Below, one piece after another: positions 4,426 to 34,435 of a stretch of DNA of 64,000 bases. The notes beneath the pieces are model-generated. The model worked only from the letters and a program-made list of their open reading frames with translations. It did no database searches and had not been told where the DNA came from. Source of the DNA: Dictyostelium discoideum (lineage: Eukaryota); contig CM000151.3 of the NCBI GenBank assembly GCA_000004695.1, positions 8,416,001 to 8,480,000 on the forward strand. Reading direction: 5' to 3'. The position numbers were made by a program, and so were the translations under genes. Positions within the stretch are counted from its first letter, which is position 1; each line of letters begins with the position of its first letter.

Positions 4426-5364
4426 TTACAAATTAAAAGGTTGAGGTATTTTTGAAGAATAACAAAATTTAAATTCTGGATCTTGGTATTCACGTTGATT
4501 CACTAAAGAGGCGGAAGAAGTTCTGCATGCCATTGAACAAAGGTCGAATTGATTCTTTAAATATTTCTTATCTAAATTCTTTTCAGCGAAATTAATTAAT
4601 GTATCATGCAGTATTGAAACTTTGTCTTGTCTCATACAACATGAAATACAAAATTCATAAGAATCACAACAATCTGAAACTTCACCACCTAAACATCTTG
4701 AGCATGTAAATCTTTGTACACCTATTTCTTCGTTTTCTATTTGATTTTCATTATCACCTCTATTTTTATTATTGGTAGTTTTTTGATTACCTTCATCATT
4801 ATCATTATCATCATCATCATCATCTCTAAAATGTTTATTATTGTTAGTTGTAGTGCTAGTTTTATTTCCACCAAAACAACATCCTGTGACTGAATCCCAT
4901 TGAGATCGTAAACAAACATATCCTTGATCATCTGCAATATATGTACTTCCTTGAATTGTACTTTCACATTTATTATTTTCATCATTATTATTACTACTAT
5001 TACTACCATTACTATTCTTATTATTACTATTATTATTATTATTGTTATTATTATTATTATTATTATTGTTATTATTATTATTATTATTAGTGTTAGTGTT
5101 ATCGTTATCATCACTACTTCTAATGTTTCTACCGGTACTTGTAAAACTATTTAATTGGTATCCATTATCATCATTAGTTTTTTGATATTTATGATTTGTT
5201 GGTCCCCATTTGAAATTATATTCATTTATTATTGTGTTTATTTTTTCTTGTTTACCAAAATCTGTTAAAGGTAATGAATCAGTTTTATAAATTCCAATTA
5301 ATATTACACCAATACCAAGTATTATCACTAAAAGAATACATAATTTAAATGGTATTCTTTTCAT
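4426..5364 (-). CDS. SPRING (SREBP-regulating gene, C12orf49/UPF0454) homolog. Type II membrane protein with a Cys-rich lumenal domain.
   Basis: N-terminal TM helix (LCILLVIILGIGVILIGIY), a poly-Asn insert, then a C-terminal domain CESTIQG..YVCLRS..GCC...CCDSYEFCISCCM...FDLCSMACRTSSASLVNQREYQDPEFKFCYSS. This aligns motif-for-motif with human SPRING ([61 protein letters not shown]). Confidence 0.75.
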   Translation of the reverse strand: MKRIPFKLCILLVIILGIGVILIGIYKTDSLPLTDFGKQEKINTIINEYNFKWGPTNHKYQKTNDDNGYQLNSFTSTGRNIRSSDDNDNTNTNNNNNNNNNNNNNNNNNNNNSNNKNSNGSNSSNNNDENNKCESTIQGSTYIADDQGYVCLRSQWDSVTGCCFGGNKTSTTTNNNKHFRDDDDDDNDNDEGNQKTTNNKNRGDNENQIENEEIGVQRFTCSRCLGGEVSDCCDSYEFCISCCMRQDKVSILHDTLINFAEKNLDKKYLKNQFDLCSMACRTSSASLVNQREYQDPEFKFCYSSKIPQPFNL

Positions 5365-5423
5365 GTATATATATATATTTTTTTTATTTATTATTTGTTT
5401 TTTTTTTTCTTATGATTTTTTAT

Positions 5424-5424
5424 T

Positions 5425-5503
<79 letters not shown>

Positions 5504-5504
5504 T
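5424..5504. repeat. (ATTT)n microsatellite, about 20 units.
   Basis: Perfect tttatttatt... tandem run in the spacer between the SPRING homolog and Sec24. It is flanked by 40-60 nt poly(T)/poly(A) homopolymers (5881-5956 and 4095-4165). Confidence 0.9.
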
Positions 5505-5655
5505 TTTTTTTTTTTTTTTCCTTACTAATTTTATTATATATATGTAAAATAAAAAAAAAGAAAAAATAAAAAATTTAAAAAATTATTTATTTTTTTTTTT
5601 TATTGGTATATAACATATTAATCTTATTTATCTTAATTAATTAAATTAATGGGTG

Positions 5656-5687
<32 letters not shown>

Positions 5688-5890
5688 TGAATTAATTTGG
5701 TCTTGGAAAAAAAAAAAATAAAAAAAATAAAAAAAAATAAAAAAAAAATAAAAATAAAAATATTTGAAAAACACGGTTGCAAGCTGTTTTGTGCTGACTT
5801 TTTAGTTGAGTTATATTTGCTGCATTGTAATCATTACTTTTTTAATAATTATTTTCTATTCTTTGATTATTATTATTATTTTCTATTCTT

Positions 5891-6538: not shown

Positions 6539-7350
6539 ATGAGTTATCCAAACCAACAACAAGAACAAAGTGGTTATCCACAACAACAACAACAGGGTTA
6601 TCCACAACAAAATCAGGGTGGTTATCCACAACAACAACAACAACAACATCAAAGGGGTGGATATCCACAACAAGGATACCCACAACAACCACAGGGTTAT
6701 CCACAACAAAATCAAGGTGGATATCCACAACAACCACAAACACAACAATATAACCCATATAGTCAACAAACATCACCACCTACAACTACAAATTCAGCAC
6801 CACCAACTACAAATTCAGCACCATTAAACCCATCTGTACAACAAACATCACCACCACAATCAATGACTAATAATACTGGAGTATATTCACAACCACCACC
6901 AACTAATCAACAACAATCACCATCAAAATCACAACCAATCAATAATAATAATATGGGAGGATATCCTCAACAATCATCACAATCATCACCACCACCAACA
7001 TCACAACAACAACAATATCAAGGTGGTTATCCACAACAAACAGGTTATTCTCAACAACCACAAACAAATTCATTATCATCACCAACCCAACCACCACCAC
7101 CAATCACAAATAATACATCAGCACCACCACAACCAACAGGTTATTCTCAACCACCACCAATGACAAATAATACAGGTTATCAACAAACTACAAATACTTC
7201 ACAACCACCAATGAACAATTATCAACAATACTCACCAAATCAACCAAGCGGTGGTAATATGTATCAACAACCACAATCACAACAATCACAACAACCACAA
7301 CAACCACAACAATATCAATATAATCAACAACCACCACAACAACCATATGG

Positions 7351-7408
<58 letters not shown>

Positions 7409-10036
7409 CCACCACAACAACCATATGGACAACAACCACAACAACAACAACAATGGAATAGTAATCCAGTACCAGGTTTACAAAATTTATCACTTGGACC
7501 AAATAACCAACAACCACAACAACAATATGGACAACCACAACAACAACAATATGGGCAACCACCATTCGTTGGACAACAACAACAACAACAACAACAACCA
7601 TGGCAACCACAACAACCACAACAACAACCAAATCAACAACAAATTGAGGATAATAGAATTAATATGTCAAAAGTGCCAAGCCCAACAGCAATTTTAGAAC
7701 AATTTAATAATTATATTTATAAGACCAATTCAGATGTGTCACCACCACCATCAACAGTTCAACAATTAGTGATTGATCAACAAAATGCATCACCAAATTT
7801 CATTCGTTCAACATTGTATACCATTCCAGAGAATGAGGATACTCTTAATCTAATTCATATTCCATTTGCAATTCATGTTCAACCATTGGCATACAATGGT
7901 ATTTCAGGTGAGGTACCAGTGATTCGTACACCAGGTGGACCAATTCAATGTAAACGTTGTCACAGTTATATCAATCCATTCAATCCATTCACCAATGGTG
8001 GTAAATATTTTACTTGTCGTTTCTGTGAATTTGAAAATCAAGTACCACAAGAATACTTTAGTGCCACGCTTCCAAATGGTCAACGTACCGATTACGAACA
8101 AAGACCTGAACTTCAAAGGGGTTCCTACGATTTCATAAAGACTGAAGCAAATGCAGCTCAAGTACCGGGTTATGTTTTCGTGATTGAAATTTCACAAGTT
8201 ACCATCAATAGTGGTATCGTCGAGAATGTAATCAATGCCATCAGAAGAATTCTCAATGAAAGATATGATAGTATACCAGCCAAAGTTGGTATCATCACCT
8301 ACGATACAGAGGTTCACTTTTGGTCATTCAAACCAACCTATGCCTATCCACAAATGAAAGTATTGACAGCTGACAATGTTTTCGTACCAGTTAATGACGG
8401 TTTCCTCGTGGATTATCGTGAGTCTAAACAATTGATGGATTTCTTTTTCGATAATTTCAAAACCTTCTTCAAACGTCCACAACCATCGAATCAACCATTT
8501 GCATTTGGTGCCGCTGTTCAAGCCGCTGCAATGTCATTGGAAAAGATTGGTGGTAGAGTTTTCACATTCAATACTACCCTTCCAAAAGGTTCACCTGGTG
8601 CTATCGCTAAACGTGTCGAAAAATCAATTCAACCATCACCAAACGGTTCACAATTCTATAAGACGGTAGCAACTGAATGTGTTGCAAAGAATGTTTCAGT
8701 GGATCTCTTTGTAATTCCAACAGAGATTTGTGATGTACCATCCTATGCTCAATTGGCAACCGCTACTGGTGGTCATATCAATCTCTACAATAATTACTCG
8801 GCCGAAGTTCACTCTGAATTACTCACAAGTGATATCATTCATTATGTTACAATGGAATTTGGTTTCAACGCAACCTCTAAAGTTAGATCCTCTAGAGGTA
8901 TCACTGTTTCTGCTCATTATGGTAATATCACTGAAGAGAATGGTCTCATTCAAATGGCTGGCGTGACCTCTGATAAATCAATTACATCAGTATTAAAATA
9001 TGATGATAAATTAAAACCAAAATCAAAAGCTTATATTCAATTTGCAATGATGTAAGTTTTTATTAAATTATTTAAATAATAATTATTATATATATATAAA
9101 ATATATTATAATATTTATAATTAACTATTTTATTTTATTTTATTTAGATATACAAATATTAAAGGTGAAACTAGAATTAGAATTCATAATTTAAGATTAT
9201 CAGTTGATTCAGTTTTAACAAATTTATTTAAAGATTCAGATTTAGATTCAATTACAACCTATTTTGCAAGAGTAGCAAGTAAAGAGGTATTGACAACTAC
9301 ACCAACTACAGTTCGTTCAAATACAGTTGATAAAGGTGTTGATTTATTAGCATCCTATAGAAAGAATTGTGCATCCGATAAGAAGGCAACTCAATTGATC
9401 TTACCAGAGGGTATTAAATTGATGCCAATCTATATATTGTCAATGATGAAAACACCATGTTTCCGTCTTTCACCAGATATCAGTCAAGATTTGCGTTATT
9501 TCTATTTGAATTTATACACTTCATCAGCACCTTCAAGAATTATACCATTGATTTATCCACGTACCTATCCAATTCATAATTTATTACCTGGCGATGGTTA
9601 TAAACATCCAAACTATGATCACATTGTATTACCATCATTCATTAGATTATCGGCCGATCAAATCTCTCAAAATGGTATTTACATTCATGAAGATGGTAGA
9701 CAAATTATGGTTTGGATTCAACAATTTGCTGCTACCAATTATCTTCGTGATCTTTTCGGTATCGAGAGTACCTTTGGTTATACCAATAGTAAATTATCAC
9801 AACTCTATCATTCTTTAAATGGTCAAAACGAATATCATCAACGTATTGAAGCTATCATCGCTTCAATCACTCAACTTCGTGGTTACAAAGATAGACCTGT
9901 CATTTTCGTCGTTCAAGGTGATCCTGTTGATGCTCATCTTAGATTACAATTCCATGAAGACAAAGGTGTTGATTCTGTCTCTTACATTGATTTCCTTTGT
10001 CAAATTCATAAACAAATTCAAAATAAATTATCGTAA
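6539..10036 (+). CDS. COPII coat component Sec24. Model join(6539..9051,9148..10036).
   Basis: A Gln/Pro-rich N-terminus with GYPQQ repeats is followed by the Sec23/24 zinc finger CKRCHSYINPFNPF...FTCRFCEFENQVP and a trunk domain. Donor GTAAGT at 9052 and acceptor TTTAG at 9146-9147 restore the frame into the 9290..10036 ORF (helical and gelsolin-like region). The intron is 96 nt and AT-rich. Confidence 0.85.
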
Positions 10037-18186: not shown

Positions 18187-23320
<5,134 letters not shown>

Positions 23321-25930: not shown

Positions 25931-25974
<44 letters not shown>

Positions 25975-26319
25975 TATAAAAGTTGATGGAAATGTTTCTT
26001 TCTCAATCAATTAAATGCTTCTTTAGAACCTTTTGATTCTAAATTTGCTTATTATCAAAAAAACAATAAAAAATTGGTTTTAAAAATATATCGGAAATAA
26101 TTGAAAAAGAAAAAAAAGTGACGCTTTAAAATTTGAGTAAAAAACGGTTATGAAAAAAAATCTTTTATTTTTTTTTTTTGAATTTTCGTCACCAATTACC
26201 AAACGACGTTTTTGTTTTTTTTTTATATTTAAGTGGTATCGAAAAAAAAAAAAAAAAACAAAAAAAAAACCATCAAAACATTAAAAAAGTTCATTTAAAC
26301 AGAAAGAAATAATAAAAAA

Positions 26320-26719
26320 ATGAAATTATTAAACTCACTAATTTTATTAGTTTTAACTTGTTTGGTATCGTCAATCAATACTCAATTCATTTCCATTCAA
26401 AAGTATGATTTTAGTGGAAATTGTAAAAATAGCTCAGATTCAGCAAGTAGTTTTGAAGCATCAAGCGAATCAGCAGCAATTTGTATGCAAAATGATTTAT
26501 TATCTGGTATAGTTACAAATGAGGGTGTTTGCTTAATATTTAATGAAGTTCCAACTACATTCATTATATCAACAAAAGGTGATTACATTGTTCGTTCAAT
26601 TTATGATATAAACGATAATAATTGTCAAGGTAATTATTTTATTTTTTACTTTTTTATTTTATTTCTATTATTGACTACTGATTTTGTAGGTGGCAGTGAG
26701 GCAAATACTAATAATAAAA

Positions 26720-26791
<72 letters not shown>

Positions 26792-27193
26792 TTTACCACA
26801 GGTGGTATTATTGAAAATAAAGCAATTGAAATTGATGAATGTTTTGTTGAGTGTGCTGATGATTACCATGGAAGTACATATTTATTTTCAACTGAAACAT
26901 CTTTAAATTACCCATCTAATACCTTCATGGAAATATCTTACAATGGTGAATGTGATGGACAATGGAAAACTAGTTTCAATTATCTTCAATATTACATTGT
27001 AAATAAATGTAATGTTGCACATGAAATTGAAACTCATACCTTTTCTGTAGGTTGTAATAGTACTTCTTCTTGGGTTAGTGAATACGCTGGTGAAGTTTGT
27101 ACCGTTGAACCAACTGTTACCACATCTTATCCAATAGTTGATAATTGTGGAGATTTAGATAATTCCAACTTTATTGATTATTGTAACATTTAA
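26320..27193 (+). CDS. Secreted Cys-rich small protein, paralog A of a tandem triplet. Model join(26320..26629,26802..27193).
   Basis: Signal peptide MKLLNSLILLVLTCLVSSINTQ. Exon 1 ends CQ|G with donor GTAATT (phase 1). The intron carries a (TTA)n run and ends CCACAG at 26800-26801. Exon 2 is GIIENKAIEIDECFVECADDYHG...CNI, giving about 12 Cys in the mature protein. Confidence 0.7.
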
Positions 27194-27491
27194 ATTATTA
27201 AAGTCTTTTAAAAATAAAAATTGTTGGTTAATTATTTTTTTTTAATTTTTTTTTTTTTTTTATTATTATTAACCAAAAAAATATATAGTGTTCCAAATTT
27301 TTACATTCTTTATTTTTTTTTATTTTTTTTTTGGGGTTTAATTAAAAAAAAAATAACTCAAAATTTTAAGTGAAAATGTTAAAAAAAAAAAATATCTCTT
27401 TTTTTTAATTTTTTAGTTTTGTCAAAAAAAAAAAAAAACCATCAAAACATTAAAAAAGTTGATTTAAAAAAAAGAAAGAAATAATAAAAAA

Positions 27492-27928
27492 ATGAAATTA
27501 TTAAACTCACTAATTTTATTAGTTTTAACTTGTTTGGTATCGTCAATCAATACTCAATTCATTTCCATTCAAAAGTATGATTTTAGTGGAAATTGTAAAA
27601 ATAGTTCAGATTCAGCAAGTAGTTTTGAAGCATCAAGCGAATCAGCAGCAATTTGTATGCAAAATGATTTATTATCTGGTATAGTTACAAATGAGGGTGT
27701 TTGCTTAATATTTAATGAAATCCCAACTACATTCCTTATATCATCAAATGGTGATTACGTTGTTAGTACAATTTATGATAAAGACGATCTTAATTGTCAA
27801 GGTAATTATTTTATTTTTTTATTTTTTTAATATTTTATTCCTATAATTAATTGACTACTGATTTTGTTGGTGAAGTTGTGCAAATACTTATAGTATATAT
27901 TTTATATTTTTAAATTTATTAATAAATA

Positions 27929-27988
<60 letters not shown>

Positions 27989-28389
27989 TTACCACAGGTA
28001 ATATTATTGGAAATAGAGCAATTAAAATTGGTGAATGTTTTGTTGAGTGTGCTGATGATTACCACGGAAGTACATATTTATTTTCAACTGAAACATCTTT
28101 CAATTACCCATCTAATACCTACATTGAAATATCTTACAATGGCGAATGTGATGGACAATGGAAAACTGGTTTTAACTATCTTCAATATTACATTGTCAAT
28201 AAATGTAATGTTGCACATGAAATTGAAACTCATACCTTTTCTGTAGGTTGTAATAGTACTTCTTCTTGGGTTAGTGAATACGCTGGTGAAATTTGTACCG
28301 TTCGACCAAGTATTACTTATACTAACCAAATCGGTGATAATTGTGGTGGTTTTAATAGTGCCAACTTTATTGATTATTGTAACATTTAA
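27492..28389 (+). CDS. Secreted Cys-rich small protein, paralog B. Model join(27492..27801,27998..28389).
   Basis: Exon 1 is nearly identical to paralog A, with the first ~230 nt about 98% identical. It has the same phase-1 intron after CQ|G, containing (ATT)n and ending CCACAG at 27996-27997. Exon 2 (NIIGNRAIKIGECFVECADDYHG...DYCNI) is not reported as an ORF because it has no Met. Confidence 0.7.
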
Positions 28390-28440
28390 ATTATTAAAGT
28401 TTCAAAAATAAAATAAAATTATTGGTTTGTACTTTCTTTG

Positions 28441-28495
<55 letters not shown>

Positions 28496-28775
28496 CTGAA
28501 AATCCTATTCTACAACACAAAGCATGCTTTGCTTTGAATTAAAAAGTAATTGAATTTTATAATTATTTTTTTAAAAAAAAAATATATATAAATTTCTCGA
28601 ACATGTCATAAATAAATTCTAGAAAAATTAAATGATATTTTGAGATTTTTTAAATTTTTATAAAAACATTTAGATATTTTTTATAATGATATCACTTTAA
28701 AACAAATTTTCATTTTTTTTTAAAAAATGAATTGTAAAAGTCAATAAAATTTTTTTTTTTTTTTCTTCAACACAT

Positions 28776-28784
28776 AAAATAAAA

Positions 28785-28865
<81 letters not shown>

Positions 28866-28890
28866 AAATAAATAAATAAATAAATACATA
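28776..28890. repeat. (AAAT)n microsatellite, about 28 units.
   Basis: Near-perfect aaataaataaat run just upstream of paralog C. The opposite-strand ORF 28767..28970 is an artifact of it. Confidence 0.9.
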
Positions 28891-28918
28891 AAGAAAAAAA
28901 GAAAAAAAAAAAAAAAAA

Positions 28919-29766
28919 ATGAAATTATTATATTCATTAATTTTATTAGTACTAACATGTTTGATTTCATTAACTCAAACTCAATACATCTCCATACAAA
29001 ATTATCAATTCAGTGGGAATTGTAATAGATTTATCAATGGTAGCAGTAGTGATTCAACAGAAACTTGTGTTCAAGATGATTTATTGTCTGGTCAAGTGAC
29101 AAGTGAGGGTTTTTGTTTGATTTTTAATGAAGATATAAGCACATTAACAATATCACCAAATGGTAATTCAATTATTCAATCAATTTATTCACCAACTGAT
29201 TATAATTGCCAAGGTAATTATTTTATTATATAATTTTTTTTTTTTTTTTTTTTTTTAATTTTTTTTGTGTTTTTTTTTCTATTTTAATTTTTTGTGTTCT
29301 ATTTTTAGTTTTGAATAATTATTTTTATTATTTTTTATTTATTTTTTTATTTAATTATATTATTATTATAGGTGGTATTATTAAAGAGAAAGAACATGAA
29401 ATTGGTGAATGTTTTTCTCATTGTGTTGATGAAAACCATGGAAAAGTATATTCATTATCTACACAGTCATCAATTAGTTTCCCATCGAATACTTTTGTTG
29501 AAGTGTTTTATTCTGGTGAATGCAATGGGGATTGGAAAAATAATTTCAATTATCTTGATTATTTTGTGATTAATAAATGTAATATTGCATATGCTTTTGA
29601 AAGTCTTACCTATACTTTCAATTGTAATAGTACTTCTTCCTGGATGAGTGAGTTCAATGATGAAAATTGCACCGTTAAACCAGCTGGTATTCAAGTTGAT
29701 CCTTTAGCAAATAGTTGTAGTAATGCATCCAATAATAAAAACCATTTAGATATTTGTAATGTTTAA
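28919..29766 (+). CDS. Secreted Cys-rich small protein, diverged paralog C. Model join(28919..29213,29372..29766).
   Basis: Same architecture: signal peptide MKLLYSLILLVLTCLISLTQTQ, exon 1 ending CQ|G at a phase-1 GTAATT donor, acceptor TTATAG at 29370-29371, and exon 2 GIIKEKEHEIGECFSHCVDENHG...DICNV. The Cys spacing is conserved with A and B, but sequence identity is only about 55%. Confidence 0.7.
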
Positions 29767-29919: not shown

Positions 29920-30087
29920 ATGTCTATCTTTGGTAATAAATCATGGGTAGAAATAACAGAAGAAGATGAAGAGATACAAGCATCACCTCAACTATCAAGT
30001 AATCAAGATGATGATAATATTAAAAAATTAGAAAGTTTAATAATCTCTGATACTACAAATAATAAAAATGAAAATAACAATAATAAT

Positions 30088-30160
<73 letters not shown>

Positions 30161-31027
30161 GTAATATTAATAAAAAAGCATCACCACTTAAAAAGAATAC
30201 AATGACACCAAGAACTTCAATTAAATCTAAATATTTAGCAAATAAATTAAATAAAAGATCAACAATTCAAATTCCAATTCAAAAGGGAGGTAGTACTACT
30301 GCATCAAATAAAAAACAAAAAGAGAAAGCAAAAAAAGAAGAAGAGGAAGTTGAGGAGGAAGGTGAAGAGGAGGAAGAGGATGAATATGATGAATATGATG
30401 AAGATAATGACGATTATGATGAGGAGGATCAAGAACAAGATTATGATGAAGATTATGATGAGGAAGAAGAAGAAGAAGAGGATACCTATCATACCCCTCA
30501 AAAAAGAGCAAATAATAGTAATAATAAATTCAACATTAATAGTAATAATAGATATGTACAACAACACCAACACCAACAACAACAACAACAAAATAATTAT
30601 AACAATAATAATCAAACCTCTTCACCTCAACAACATTATCGAACTAAAGAGGATATTTTCTTTAGAAAGAATTTACTTCCATCACCATCACCACCACAAC
30701 ACCACCAACAACAACAACAACAACAACAAGGTAAATTTACAGGTAGAGATCTTAGAGATTTAATTAATGAAGAAAAGAAAAAAAATCCTCAAATTCATCA
30801 ACAGATGAAATCGCCTCAACATAATAATAACAATAATAGTAATAGTAGTACACCAACTAAAGGTGATTTAAGGGATTTAATTGAAAATGAAAAAAGAAAA
30901 ACACCTACATCATCACCACAACAACAACAAAAACAACATCATCAAGAAGGTGAAGATACACCATCTTCTCTAATGTCTGCTAGATTCTCAAGATTTAATT
31001 CACCATCATCATCACCACAACCACACC

Positions 31028-31085
<58 letters not shown>

Positions 31086-31314
31086 TAAACCACAACAAAG
31101 ATCAAATTTATCAACACCAATAACAAAAAGAAGAGATATTGAAGATTTAACTCCTTATTCTTCACCAAATCCTTCAACACCAATTCAAAGAAATAATAGT
31201 AATAACAATAGAAATTCACAAAATTCACCATCTATAACACCAACAAGAGGACCATTAAAATTTAATGTTGACTCACCTAAACAACCAATTGTTTTTAATA
31301 ATCAAAATAATCAA

Positions 31315-31397
<83 letters not shown>

Positions 31398-32331
31398 TGT
31401 AAAATTAACAAACGAATCAATTGATTTAAATAGTGTAAAACCAATTATTGGAACATGTAAAGATTATGAAAAATCATATCTTAGATTAACAGGACCAGCT
31501 GATCCAGCAAAAATTAGATCCATTGAGATTTTAGAAACTTGGTTTCCAAAATTGATTAGGAAATATCAAAATAATAAAAATTTCAATTATGCATTGGATC
31601 AATTAAAATCCATTAGACAAGATTTAATGGTACAACATATAAGAAATAAATTCACTGTCAATGTTTATGAGGCAAATGCAAAAATATGTTTAGAGAATTC
31701 AGATTTCATTGAATTTGGTCAATGTTTATCACAAATTAAAGAATTATATCATTCAATTTCTGATCAATCTTGTTTAGAAAATAAATTTGAATTTATATCT
31801 TATGATTTATTATTTAATTTAATTTTTATTAAAGATAATGGTAAATAATAAAATTATTATTATTCAGAAAAAAAAAAAAAAAAAAAAAAAAAATTTACTA
31901 ATATTAATTATTATTATTTAAATTTAGAATTAGAATTAATATCATTATTACCAAAAATTTTAAATGATGAAAGTTTTTATTCAAATGAAAATATTAAACA
32001 TACATTTGAAATTATTAAATCAGTTTTGGAAAATAATTATTGTAAATTTAATAAATTATATTTAACGTGTTATAATATGGAAAAATACCTTTTGGAAAAG
32101 ATTTTAAATGATAGATTTAGAGTCTATTCTATAAATGCAATGATAAAATCCTATAAACCATCCATTCATTTAAATTTATTGGAAAAACAATTATCTTTTT
32201 CAAACCAAGAACAGCTATTAAAATTTTTGGATTCAAATTACCCAAATAATATAATTGATATAGAAAAACAAGAATTAATTTGTTCAACAAAAAAAGAAAT
32301 AAAAAAAAAAAACAAAAAAAAAAATAATTAA
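29920..32331 (+). CDS. SAC3/GANP-domain (LENG8-like, PCI-associated) protein with acidic and Gln/Asn-rich N-terminal regions. Model 29920..31840 plus a second exon starting at 31973 or 32024 and running to 32331.
   Basis: C-terminal GTCKDYEKSYLRLTGPADPAKIRSIEILE...LDQLKSIRQDLMVQHIRNKFTVNVYE matches the SAC3/GANP family signature. The domain continues after donor G|GTAAAT at 31841 (phase 1) into the frame of ORF 32026..32331 (FEIIKSVLENNYCKFNKLYL...). Two acceptors fit the phase (31971-31972 or 32022-32023) and I could not decide between them. Confidence 0.6.
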
Positions 32332-32575: not shown

Positions 32576-34435
32576 TTAATGAGTTTTTGGAATTACTTTT
32601 GAAACTTTTTCAATTAAAAGTTTGACAACTTCAGGTTCAGCTAAAGTTGAAATATCACCTAATTGTTCAGCAGAAGATTCATGACAACCAATTTTTCTAA
32701 GAATTCTTCTCATAATTTTACCACTACGAGTTTTTGGAAGTGAAGGTGTTATAACAATTACATCAGGTGTTGCAAATGGACCAATTACATTTCTAACTTC
32801 TTTTTTTAACATCATAATAACATTTGATTCATCCTCTTGATAACCTTCTTTGAGTGTACAAAATGCTAAAATACCTTGACCTTTGATATCATGAGGATAA
32901 CCAACAACGGCAGCCTCTGCACAAATTGAACAACCAACGAGGGCACTCTCTAATTCAGCAGTACCTAATCTATGACCACTAACATTGATAACATCATCTA
33001 CTCTACCTTCGATCCAATAATAACCATCAGAGTCAAGTTTTACACCATCACCAGTGAAATAGTGACCTTTATATTGAGTCATATAAGTTTGAAGATAACG
33101 ACCATGAGAACGATAAACTGAACGAGCAATACCTGGCCAAGGTTTAGAGATTGCCAATACACCAGAAATTTCTTTACAACCATTGATATCGGGATTAATA
33201 TATAAACGTTCACCAGTTTTTGAGTCTAAAACTTGTAATTCTATACCAAAGAAAGGTTTAGTTGCTGAACCAGGTTTAGTTGAAGTAACACCAGGTAATG
33301 GAGTAATTAAATGACCACCACTTTCAGTTTGCCAATAGGTATCAACGATTGCACAACGACCTTCACCAACGTTTGTATTGAACCATCTCCAGGCTTCAGG
33401 ATTAATTGGTTCACCGACTGAACCTAAAACTCTAAGGGATGATTTATCGGATTGTTGAGTAAATGATATTGGGAATTTCATTAGTGAACGAATTGCAGTT
33501 GGTGCTGTATAGAATTGAGTGATTTTATGACGTTGTACCATTTCCCAATAACGTGCTGGAGTTGGATAAAGAGGAGTACCCTCAAAGATAAAAGTTGTTG
33601 CACCATTTGCCAATGGACCATAAACGATATAACTATGACCTGTAATCCAACCAACATCAGCCATACAAGCATAAACATCGGAATCGTGATAATCGAAAAC
33701 ATAACGATGAGTCATTGCGGCGTATAGTAGATAACCAGCCTGAGTATGTACTAAACCCTTTGGTGTACCAGTGCTACCACTTGTGTAAAGGATAAATAAG
33801 GGATCTTCTGAATCTAACCAAACTGGTGGACAATATGGACGATGATCCAACATTGCTTCATCTGCCCAAATATCAATTGATGGATTAAATGTAATTGTTG
33901 GTCTACCTGTATTTTTAAAAACAAGTACATGTTGTACCAATTTGCAATGTTGAACAACTTGATCAATCTTTTCTTTTAGTGGTATATATCTACCACCTCT
34001 TAAACCTTCATCAGCCGTTATGATCACTCTACATTTTGCATCATGAACACGTGAAACAATGGATTCATAACCAAATCCTGCAAAAATAACTGAATGAATT
34101 GCTCCAATTCTAGCGCATGCTAACATTGAATAAATGGCGGTTGGTGTGTTTGGTAGATAGATCGCTACCGTATCTCCTTTACCAACGCCAAGTGATATCA
34201 AAAGATTTGATAATCTACAAACCTCTTCAAACATCTCTCTATATGTAACTTTTTTAACCATTGTTTCTTCATCACCTTCAAATAGTATTGCAACTTTATC
34301 TGCATTCTCTTTTAAATGTCTATCGATACAATTATATGAAACATTAATTTTACCATTTAAAAACCATGAAATATCACCTTTTTCGAATGATCTAAAATAA
34401 TTATTAAAAAATAATTGAAAATTAAAAAAATTTTT

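Follow-up and report, generated by a model that had tools for sequence, protein, structure and literature searches.

Three tandem PF11912 (Bad) family genes of Dictyostelium discoideum and short-tract gene conversion between cfaA and cfaB

On chromosome 2 of Dictyostelium discoideum three genes for small cysteine-rich proteins lie head to tail, and two of them are far more alike in their 5' part than further downstream. To which family do these proteins belong, what might they do for the amoeba, and how did the uneven likeness arise? We addressed these questions in a window of 64,000 nucleotides (nt) from assembly GCA_000004695.1 (contig CM000151.3, positions 8,416,001 to 8,480,000 of the forward strand), to which all coordinates refer unless another locus is named. 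The locus is the cfaA - cfaB - DDB_G0277753 tandem cluster of the AX4-type chromosome 2, and its members are called genes A, B and C below. With a probability of roughly 0.8 we read the cluster as three paralogues of the PF11912/Bad family that have a lysosomal/phagosomal accessory antibacterial role, by analogy with their relative BadA, and among which A and B undergo gene conversion.

Gene models and family identity

Computationally rebuilt models placed three two-exon genes on the plus strand at 26320-27193 (A), 27492-28389 (B) and 28919-29766 (C). This agrees with an earlier note, made from the letters of the window alone, which had described the same arrangement together with a shared signal-like N-terminus, a common cysteine (Cys) spacing and a common intron site. 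Exon 1 of gene A (26320-26629) encodes the predicted signal peptide and the N-terminal part of the PF11912 domain, including Cys 35, 55, 71 and 102, and its exon 2 (26802-27193) encodes eight Cys and ends with the stop codon TAA. The exons of gene B are located at 27492-27801 and 27998-28389, those of gene C at 28919-29213 and 29372-29766. All introns are in phase 1 after the same CQ/G site (the slash marking the intron), with a GTAATT donor and an AG acceptor. The introns of A (26630-26801, GTAATT..CAG) and B (27802-27997) contain (ATT)24 at 26720-26792 and (ATT)20 at 27929-27988, respectively, and that of C (29214-29371) is without a long (ATT)n. The predicted products comprise 233, 233 and 229 amino acids (aa) and are about 23 kDa each. 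No further copy was found by tblastn across the 64-kb window.

A, B and C are annotated genes of a described family and are already known. Each product matched Pfam family PF11912 (CfaA_B_C, "Counting factor-associated protein A/B/C", formerly DUF3430) end to end, with E-values of 2e-34, 9e-32 and 3e-36 and scores of 119.6, 111.2 and 125.6 bits for A, B and C (gathering threshold 28.6 bits). The matches covered model positions 1-205, 1-205 and 1-203 of 206 and spanned residues 1-232 of the protein. Exact-sequence look-up showed the spliced product of gene A to be identical to AX4 CfaA (Q54Z64 / XP_642489.1), the 233-aa product of gene B to KAM9946654.1 from a newer assembly, and the product of gene C to DDB_G0277753 (Q86KS4 / XP_642491.1), which carries no gene name. 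The earlier note could name no family and had assigned a domain of about 130 aa with about 12 Cys to exon 2. Both statements are superseded, as the Pfam match and the family alignment identified the whole mature protein, encoded by both exons with 4 + 8 Cys, as the conserved domain.

The three proteins share the same Cys spacing, with 13 Cys each, of which one lies within the signal peptide and 12 in the mature protein (four from exon 1 and eight from exon 2). In an alignment of 28-33 family members, C35, C55, C71 and C102 of exon 1 and C117, C154, C173, C188, C203, C219 and C231 of exon 2 were invariant or nearly invariant. Across both exons 9-10 Cys columns were invariant and about four nearly so. 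We further counted 8-9 [YFW]-x3-5-C motifs per protein, and all three thus possess the at least eight conserved Cys and several aromatic-xxxx-Cys motifs that mark the family. A signal peptide in front of the domain, another family trait (Guilhen et al. 2021), was also called heuristically in all three. The N-terminus is hydrophobic (Kyte-Doolittle 12-residue maximum of 2.7-3.1 in the first 30 aa and at most 1.5 elsewhere), cleavage sites following the -3/-1 rule occur at residues 17-21, and an AlphaFold2 model placed a helix at residues 2-17. The mature part of about 212 aa has an isoelectric point (pI) of 4.05-4.27 and 12-13% aromatic residues. The Cys framework, the aromatic-x-Cys motifs, the acidic character at about 20-25 kDa and the occurrence in tandem arrays are all shared with the PF11912/Bad family at large.

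Word-indexed homologue searches found the close clade only; the distant members came from an exhaustive profile search, which returned 22 representatives among 1.84 billion at E <= 1e-3. Every named match was from Dictyostelium or Heterostelium. The family, which the earlier note had thought possibly lineage-specific, is restricted to dictyostelids and is a named one. The CfaA/CfaB/DDB_G0277753 clade itself was seen only in D. discoideum-type strains, in D. citrinum (C-type only) and in D. dimigraforme. CfaC (Q86HB8) resembles CfaA in its PF11912 domain, its naming history and its presence in the lysosomal fraction described below; its identity to CfaA, however, is 26%, and its gene lies at another place on chromosome 2. 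The "Cfa" names therefore do not map onto the triplet, and gene C is not cfaC. Neighbouring locus tags were also considered as cfa genes and dropped; DDB_G0277757 is staD, a CBM49 stalk gene.

Gene conversion between cfaA and cfaB

An alignment of the two AX4 genes revealed a mosaic of identity. Upstream of the ATG (-70 to -1) A and B differed at 3/65 positions and over exon 1 nt 1-228 at a single position (1/228), followed by 12/82 differences (85% identity) in exon 1 nt 229-310 and 9/69 (87%) in the first 70 nt of the intron. In exon 2, 15/200 differences (92.5%) at nt 1-200 gave way to none (0/93) at nt 201-293 and then to 21/99 (79%) at nt 294-392, and the 3' flank differed at 15/72 positions. 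Tract 1, located at 26250-26547 in A and 27422-27719 in B, thus begins some 70 nt before the ATG, ends at exon 1 nt 228 and comprises the proximal promoter and the first 76 codons. Tract 2, at 27002-27094 in A and 28198-28290 in B, comprises codons 171-201. The earlier note had recognized that the 5' part is far more alike, but several of its figures required revision. Exon 1 is 95.8% rather than about 98% identical, near-identity does not continue down to the intronic (ATT)n, and exon 2, given as about 85% identical, reaches 90.8%. Its value of about 55% throughout for gene C applies to the protein (52.6% and 50.4% identity to A and B), whereas the DNA is about 75-80% identical in aligned columns.

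When the 49 coding mismatches were permuted 200,000 times, no permutation produced a 228-nt segment with at most one mismatch (p < 5e-6), so that chance does not account for the unevenness. Synonymous divergence (dS) between A and B was 0.022 in tract 1 and 0 in tract 2, in comparison to 0.116 and 0.286 outside. Divergence from D. dimigraforme was 15-17% in both tracts, as elsewhere in the genes, and the contrast between segments remained after scaling to this divergence (Fisher p = 1.7e-9). The ratio of non-synonymous to synonymous divergence (dN/dS) outside the tracts was about 0.86-0.88, indicating near-neutral or mixed selection; a single pair justifies no claim of positive selection.

The syntenic locus was compared in six assemblies (L001-L006) beside the window. 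In 6/6 related loci the cfa cluster is preceded by a DNA-polymerase-A gene and then a gene of about 600 aa, and is followed by a gene of about 770 aa that matches SAC3/GANP and by an acetyl-CoA synthetase gene on the minus strand. Assembly GCA_054883475.1, made independently from what is essentially the same strain, showed the same triplet, with one substitution and eight length indels over 12.9 kb; these indels total 48 bases and were likely caused by length differences in simple repeats. Isolates ACTFIW (FIW) and ACTFIY (FIY) have the A-B-C arrangement, ACTFIZ and D. dimigraforme one A/B-type and one C-type gene, and D. citrinum the C-type gene only, with no remnants detected by tblastn. Comparison across dictyostelid genomes, which the earlier note had proposed, gave a copy number at the syntenic locus of three in four discoideum-type assemblies, two in ACTFIZ and D. 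dimigraforme and one in D. citrinum, a difference between species.

Outside the tracts the B orthologues formed a clade with 100% neighbour-joining (NJ) bootstrap support, as did the A genes of AX4 and FIW (100%). In exon 2 nt 294-392, for example, AX4_B differed from FIW_B and FIY_B at 3-4/99 positions and A from B at 19-26/99. Inside the tracts the paralogues sorted by strain, with FIY_A and FIY_B grouping at 96% NJ bootstrap. In tract 1, A and B differed at 1/228 positions in AX4 and at 3/228 in FIW, and orthologues of AX4 and FIW at 5-7/228, which exceeds both of these values; in tract 2, the FIY paralogues differed from each other at 1/93 positions and from AX4 at 3-4/93. Derived states at 26334, 26370 and 26398 were present in both AX4 paralogues and nowhere else among the compared sequences. 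This switch, from grouping by strain within the tracts to grouping by orthology elsewhere, shows that A and B have undergone recurrent short-tract gene conversion. The duplication that gave rise to them is older than the divergence of the strains, since the A and B orthologue groups separate in three strains outside the tracts.

Two other explanations for the near-identical 5' parts were weighed. If the signal peptide and the N-terminal region were under strong purifying selection, the good conservation of the N-terminal 76 residues in all discoideum-type strains would fit. Such selection would, however, hardly lower dS to 0.022 against 0.12-0.29 elsewhere, homogenise about 50-70 nt of non-coding upstream sequence (3/65), leave tract 1 as different from D. 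dimigraforme (16%) as the other segments, or place derived states in the paralogues of one strain instead of in orthologues. As dS is low, the non-coding upstream sequence is included and divergence from D. dimigraforme is normal, the homogenisation does not reflect constraint at the protein level, and we regard this explanation as very improbable. The earlier note had left a choice between conversion and a very recent duplication confined to the 5' half, and had named an assembly collapse as a possible artifact. Raw identity speaks for such a partial duplication or collapse and nothing else does: the independently assembled GCA_054883475.1 has the same sequence, two more isolates show the three-gene layout, and the A and B orthologue groups are supported by 100% bootstrap outside the tracts. 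A recent origin or a collapse is therefore rejected, and of the two alternatives conversion stood, with two short tracts in place of one 5' half; comparison of A with B delimits the first at about -70 to exon 1 nt 228 and the second at exon 2 nt 201-293.

We reconstruct the history as follows. C-type and A/B-type genes have long been neighbours, and duplication of the A/B-type gene preceded the divergence of the sampled D. discoideum strains. A and B have later exchanged sequence repeatedly at two places, and the segments in between, especially the C-terminal 32 codons, have become diverged in a nearly neutral way (dN/dS about 0.9). Mosaic identity with homogenised synonymous and flanking non-coding sites is also seen in the concerted evolution of tandem duplicates in general, in comparison to which there is nothing unusual here. 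Tract lengths of about 300 and 93 nt are within the usual range of conversion.

Rates of change were unequal in ACTFIY, where gene A is located at 5001-5856 and gene B at 6835-7728 of locus L003. Outside the tracts FIY_B is close to AX4_B (2/82 and 3/99 differences); FIY_A differs from AX4_A at 9/82 and 11/99 positions and at 24/73 in the 3' flank, and branches off basally in the NJ tree. Its divergence could stem from introgression, from an older conversion or from A evolving faster. The single A/B-type gene of ACTFIZ grouped with B (99% bootstrap), and either A was lost in this isolate or A is a later, fast-diverging copy.

Predicted structure

With a 33-sequence alignment that included distant members, AlphaFold2 yielded a model with a mean predicted local distance difference test score (pLDDT) of 84.2 and a predicted template modelling score (pTM) of 0.79. 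A model made with nine close homologues only reached a pLDDT of 33 and was discarded. The protein is predicted to be all-beta, with about 15 strands and a single Ser-rich loop (residues 39-50) that is disordered. A Foldseek search of the model against the PDB found no counterpart (best E-value 0.09, template modelling score about 0.2), a fold search of the same type gave no match in the BFVD viral library, and profile searches against all PDB sequences were empty. To the question raised in the earlier note, whether the domain belongs to a well-known fold or family, the answer is thus divided: the family is PF11912, and the predicted fold appears to be without counterpart among solved structures. 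An internal duplication of the exon 1 half in the exon 2 half was unconvincing (hhalign probability 15%).

Function and localisation

DUF3430 proteins, which Guilhen et al. 2021 named "Bad", form a large, previously unstudied dictyostelid family; D. discoideum has 54 of them, each with a signal peptide (PMC7886984). An activity that lyses Klebsiella pneumoniae at about pH 2 was purified in two steps, and BadA-C were enriched along the way (PMC7886984). BadA overexpression raised lysis by extracts and sped the intracellular killing of ingested bacteria, and immunodepletion of BadA cut the activity by about 37% (PMC7886984). BadA has a pI of 4.19 and shows a disulfide-dependent gel shift (PMC7886984). 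Table S1 of that study lists CfaA, detected by mass spectrometry with 2 and 1 spectra in lysosome-enriched anion-exchange fractions, and also CfaC; fractions with CfaA further contained cathepsins, amoebapore-like proteins and 19 Bad proteins (PMC7886984). From family membership and this one proteomic detection we infer the localisation and the antibacterial role of A, B and C. The signal peptide would route an acidic, 12-Cys, all-beta protein of about 23 kDa into the secretory pathway, where it would most probably serve as an acid-stable lysosomal/phagosomal and secreted accessory factor that contributes, alongside other lysosomal proteins, to the lysis of ingested bacteria. The "secreted signal or adhesion family" proposed in the earlier note is without support, and the functional data for the family point to lysosomal/phagosomal antibacterial activity instead (PMC7886984).

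Several points weigh against an antibacterial cluster shaped by conversion. Purified BadA alone was inactive (PMC7886984). CfaA spectral counts were low, and CfaA was absent after the size exclusion step that enriched BadA-C (PMC7886984). We found no functional experiment on CfaA, CfaB or DDB_G0277753, BadA being the only relative tested. Identity of A, B and C to the remaining PF11912 members is only about 25-30%, and they may therefore have come to differ from these in function. The signal peptides were called by simple rules only (hydropathy and the -3/-1 rule), and support for tract 2 is weaker since it is only 93 nt long.

The names of CfaA and of the AX4 model of CfaB, "counting factor associated protein", together with the predicted signal peptides, would suggest that A, B and C are true subunits or regulators of counting factor (CF) and hence extracellular signals that set aggregate size. 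The label goes back to the partially purified CF of the Gomer laboratory, which "contains 8 proteins" (PMC2644720), some of them true components and some contaminants (PMC2644720). CF is a 450-kDa secreted complex of countin, CF50, CF45-1 and CF60. The name "counting factor-associated" records only co-purification from conditioned medium. Starving Dictyostelium cells release the contents of their lysosomes, and this would account for the co-purification. Vegetative cells, moreover, contained CfaA internally, in a lysosomal fraction, and our searches of the literature returned no paper that gives CfaA or CfaB a CF function, nor indeed any function, and no follow-up work on Bad proteins. A role as CF subunits or regulators is thus improbable. 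A different mode of action was put forward as speculation by Guilhen et al. 2021, namely that Bad proteins resemble MiAMP1 or beta-gamma-crystallin Greek-key peptides that permeabilise membranes. Both groups are small, secreted, disulfide-rich beta proteins with aromatic-xxxx-Cys motifs and a proposed antimicrobial role. The PF11912 domain, however, is nearly three times longer than MiAMP1-type proteins and has 12 Cys, and neither a superposable structure nor profile similarity was detected with the predicted model and the sequence searches. The published MiAMP1-like fold is not supported by the prediction, and we consider such a relationship improbable.

The cfaB reference model

The AX4 reference CfaB is a protein of 172 aa (P0017, "counting factor associated protein"), which is shorter than our 233-aa product. 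We could reproduce it exactly by joining 27492-27761 to 27998 onward, that is by use of a cryptic GTTAGT donor (27762-27767, plus strand) inside exon 1 of gene B, 40 nt upstream of the donor common to A and C. The 172-aa model then reads exon 2 out of frame to an early stop. A non-canonical acceptor had also been considered and was rejected, as the normal acceptor and the cryptic upstream donor fit exactly. Because the 233-aa model has a full-length Pfam match and full-length orthologues, the reference model is likely mis-spliced and the predicted true product is 233 aa long. In proteomic searches against the reference proteome, peptides from exon 2 of the true CfaB would be unmatchable to the 172-aa model. 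The GTTAGT donor was made by a CGT>AGT change and is present in the B copies of AX4, FIT and FIY.

Intron position, tandem arrays and neighbouring sequence

A second head-to-tail PF11912 triplet, which includes DDB_G0276925, is located on the same contig about 1.3 Mb from the cfa cluster. It was analysed at L007:3001-6637 (GCA_054883475.1, JBTAPE010000033.1), and its products comprise 255, 278 and 256 aa. In two of its three members the only intron directly follows the homologous fourth conserved Cys (...DDRC.E/TF..., phase 2), at most one codon from the CQ/G site, and the alignment has a gap where this one-codon offset falls. The intron is therefore older than the split of A, B and C, and PF11912 genes seem to occur habitually as tandem triplets.

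The window is AT-rich (about 22% GC), with a Dictyostelium-like texture of homopolymers and (AAT)n. An (AAAT)37 microsatellite followed by poly-A (28777-28925) reaches the ATG of gene C, with the end reported by Tandem Repeats Finder 7 nt inside the coding sequence. Gene C is consequently without the proximal upstream sequence of about 70 nt that is common to A and B, and its regulation may differ from theirs. Perfect homopolymers, T50 (28446-28495) and A40 (25932-25971), occur in intergenic spacers flanking the cluster. Among the neighbouring genes, a large one at 18187-23320 (plus strand) encodes a family-A DNA polymerase domain (PF00476, E-value 1e-91). The gene at 29920-31848 (plus strand) matches SAC3/GANP weakly and contains an in-frame (AAT)n stretch encoding poly-Asn at 30058-30173; an AMP-binding, acetyl-CoA-synthetase-like gene occupies 32576-34261 (minus strand).

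Implications for the PF11912 family

The cluster consists of annotated genes of a known family and not of a new family of secreted proteins, and the practical value of this result is modest. Useful by-products are the likely mis-spliced CfaB model, a controlled conversion map and a confident prediction for PF11912 that appears to lack a structural homologue. In the cfaA/cfaB pair, mosaic gene conversion in Dictyostelium can be seen cleanly, within well-defined limits and with controls from other strains. For a family that seems to be without structural homologue, an experimental structure of a Bad/Cfa protein would be informative on how amoebae kill bacteria. More tentatively, and as a joint proposal that we consider possible but doubtful, PF11912 might represent a new disulfide-stapled all-beta fold without kinship to MiAMP1 or the crystallins, and cfaA/cfaB might illustrate how a family of amoebal antibacterial effectors evolves. 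Conversion would then keep promoter, signal peptide and core identical, and the C-terminal surface segment would be free to diversify, as suggested by its dN/dS of about 0.9 and by a copy number of 1-3 between sister species. If true, evolution of this kind would resemble that of innate-immune effector genes in animals.

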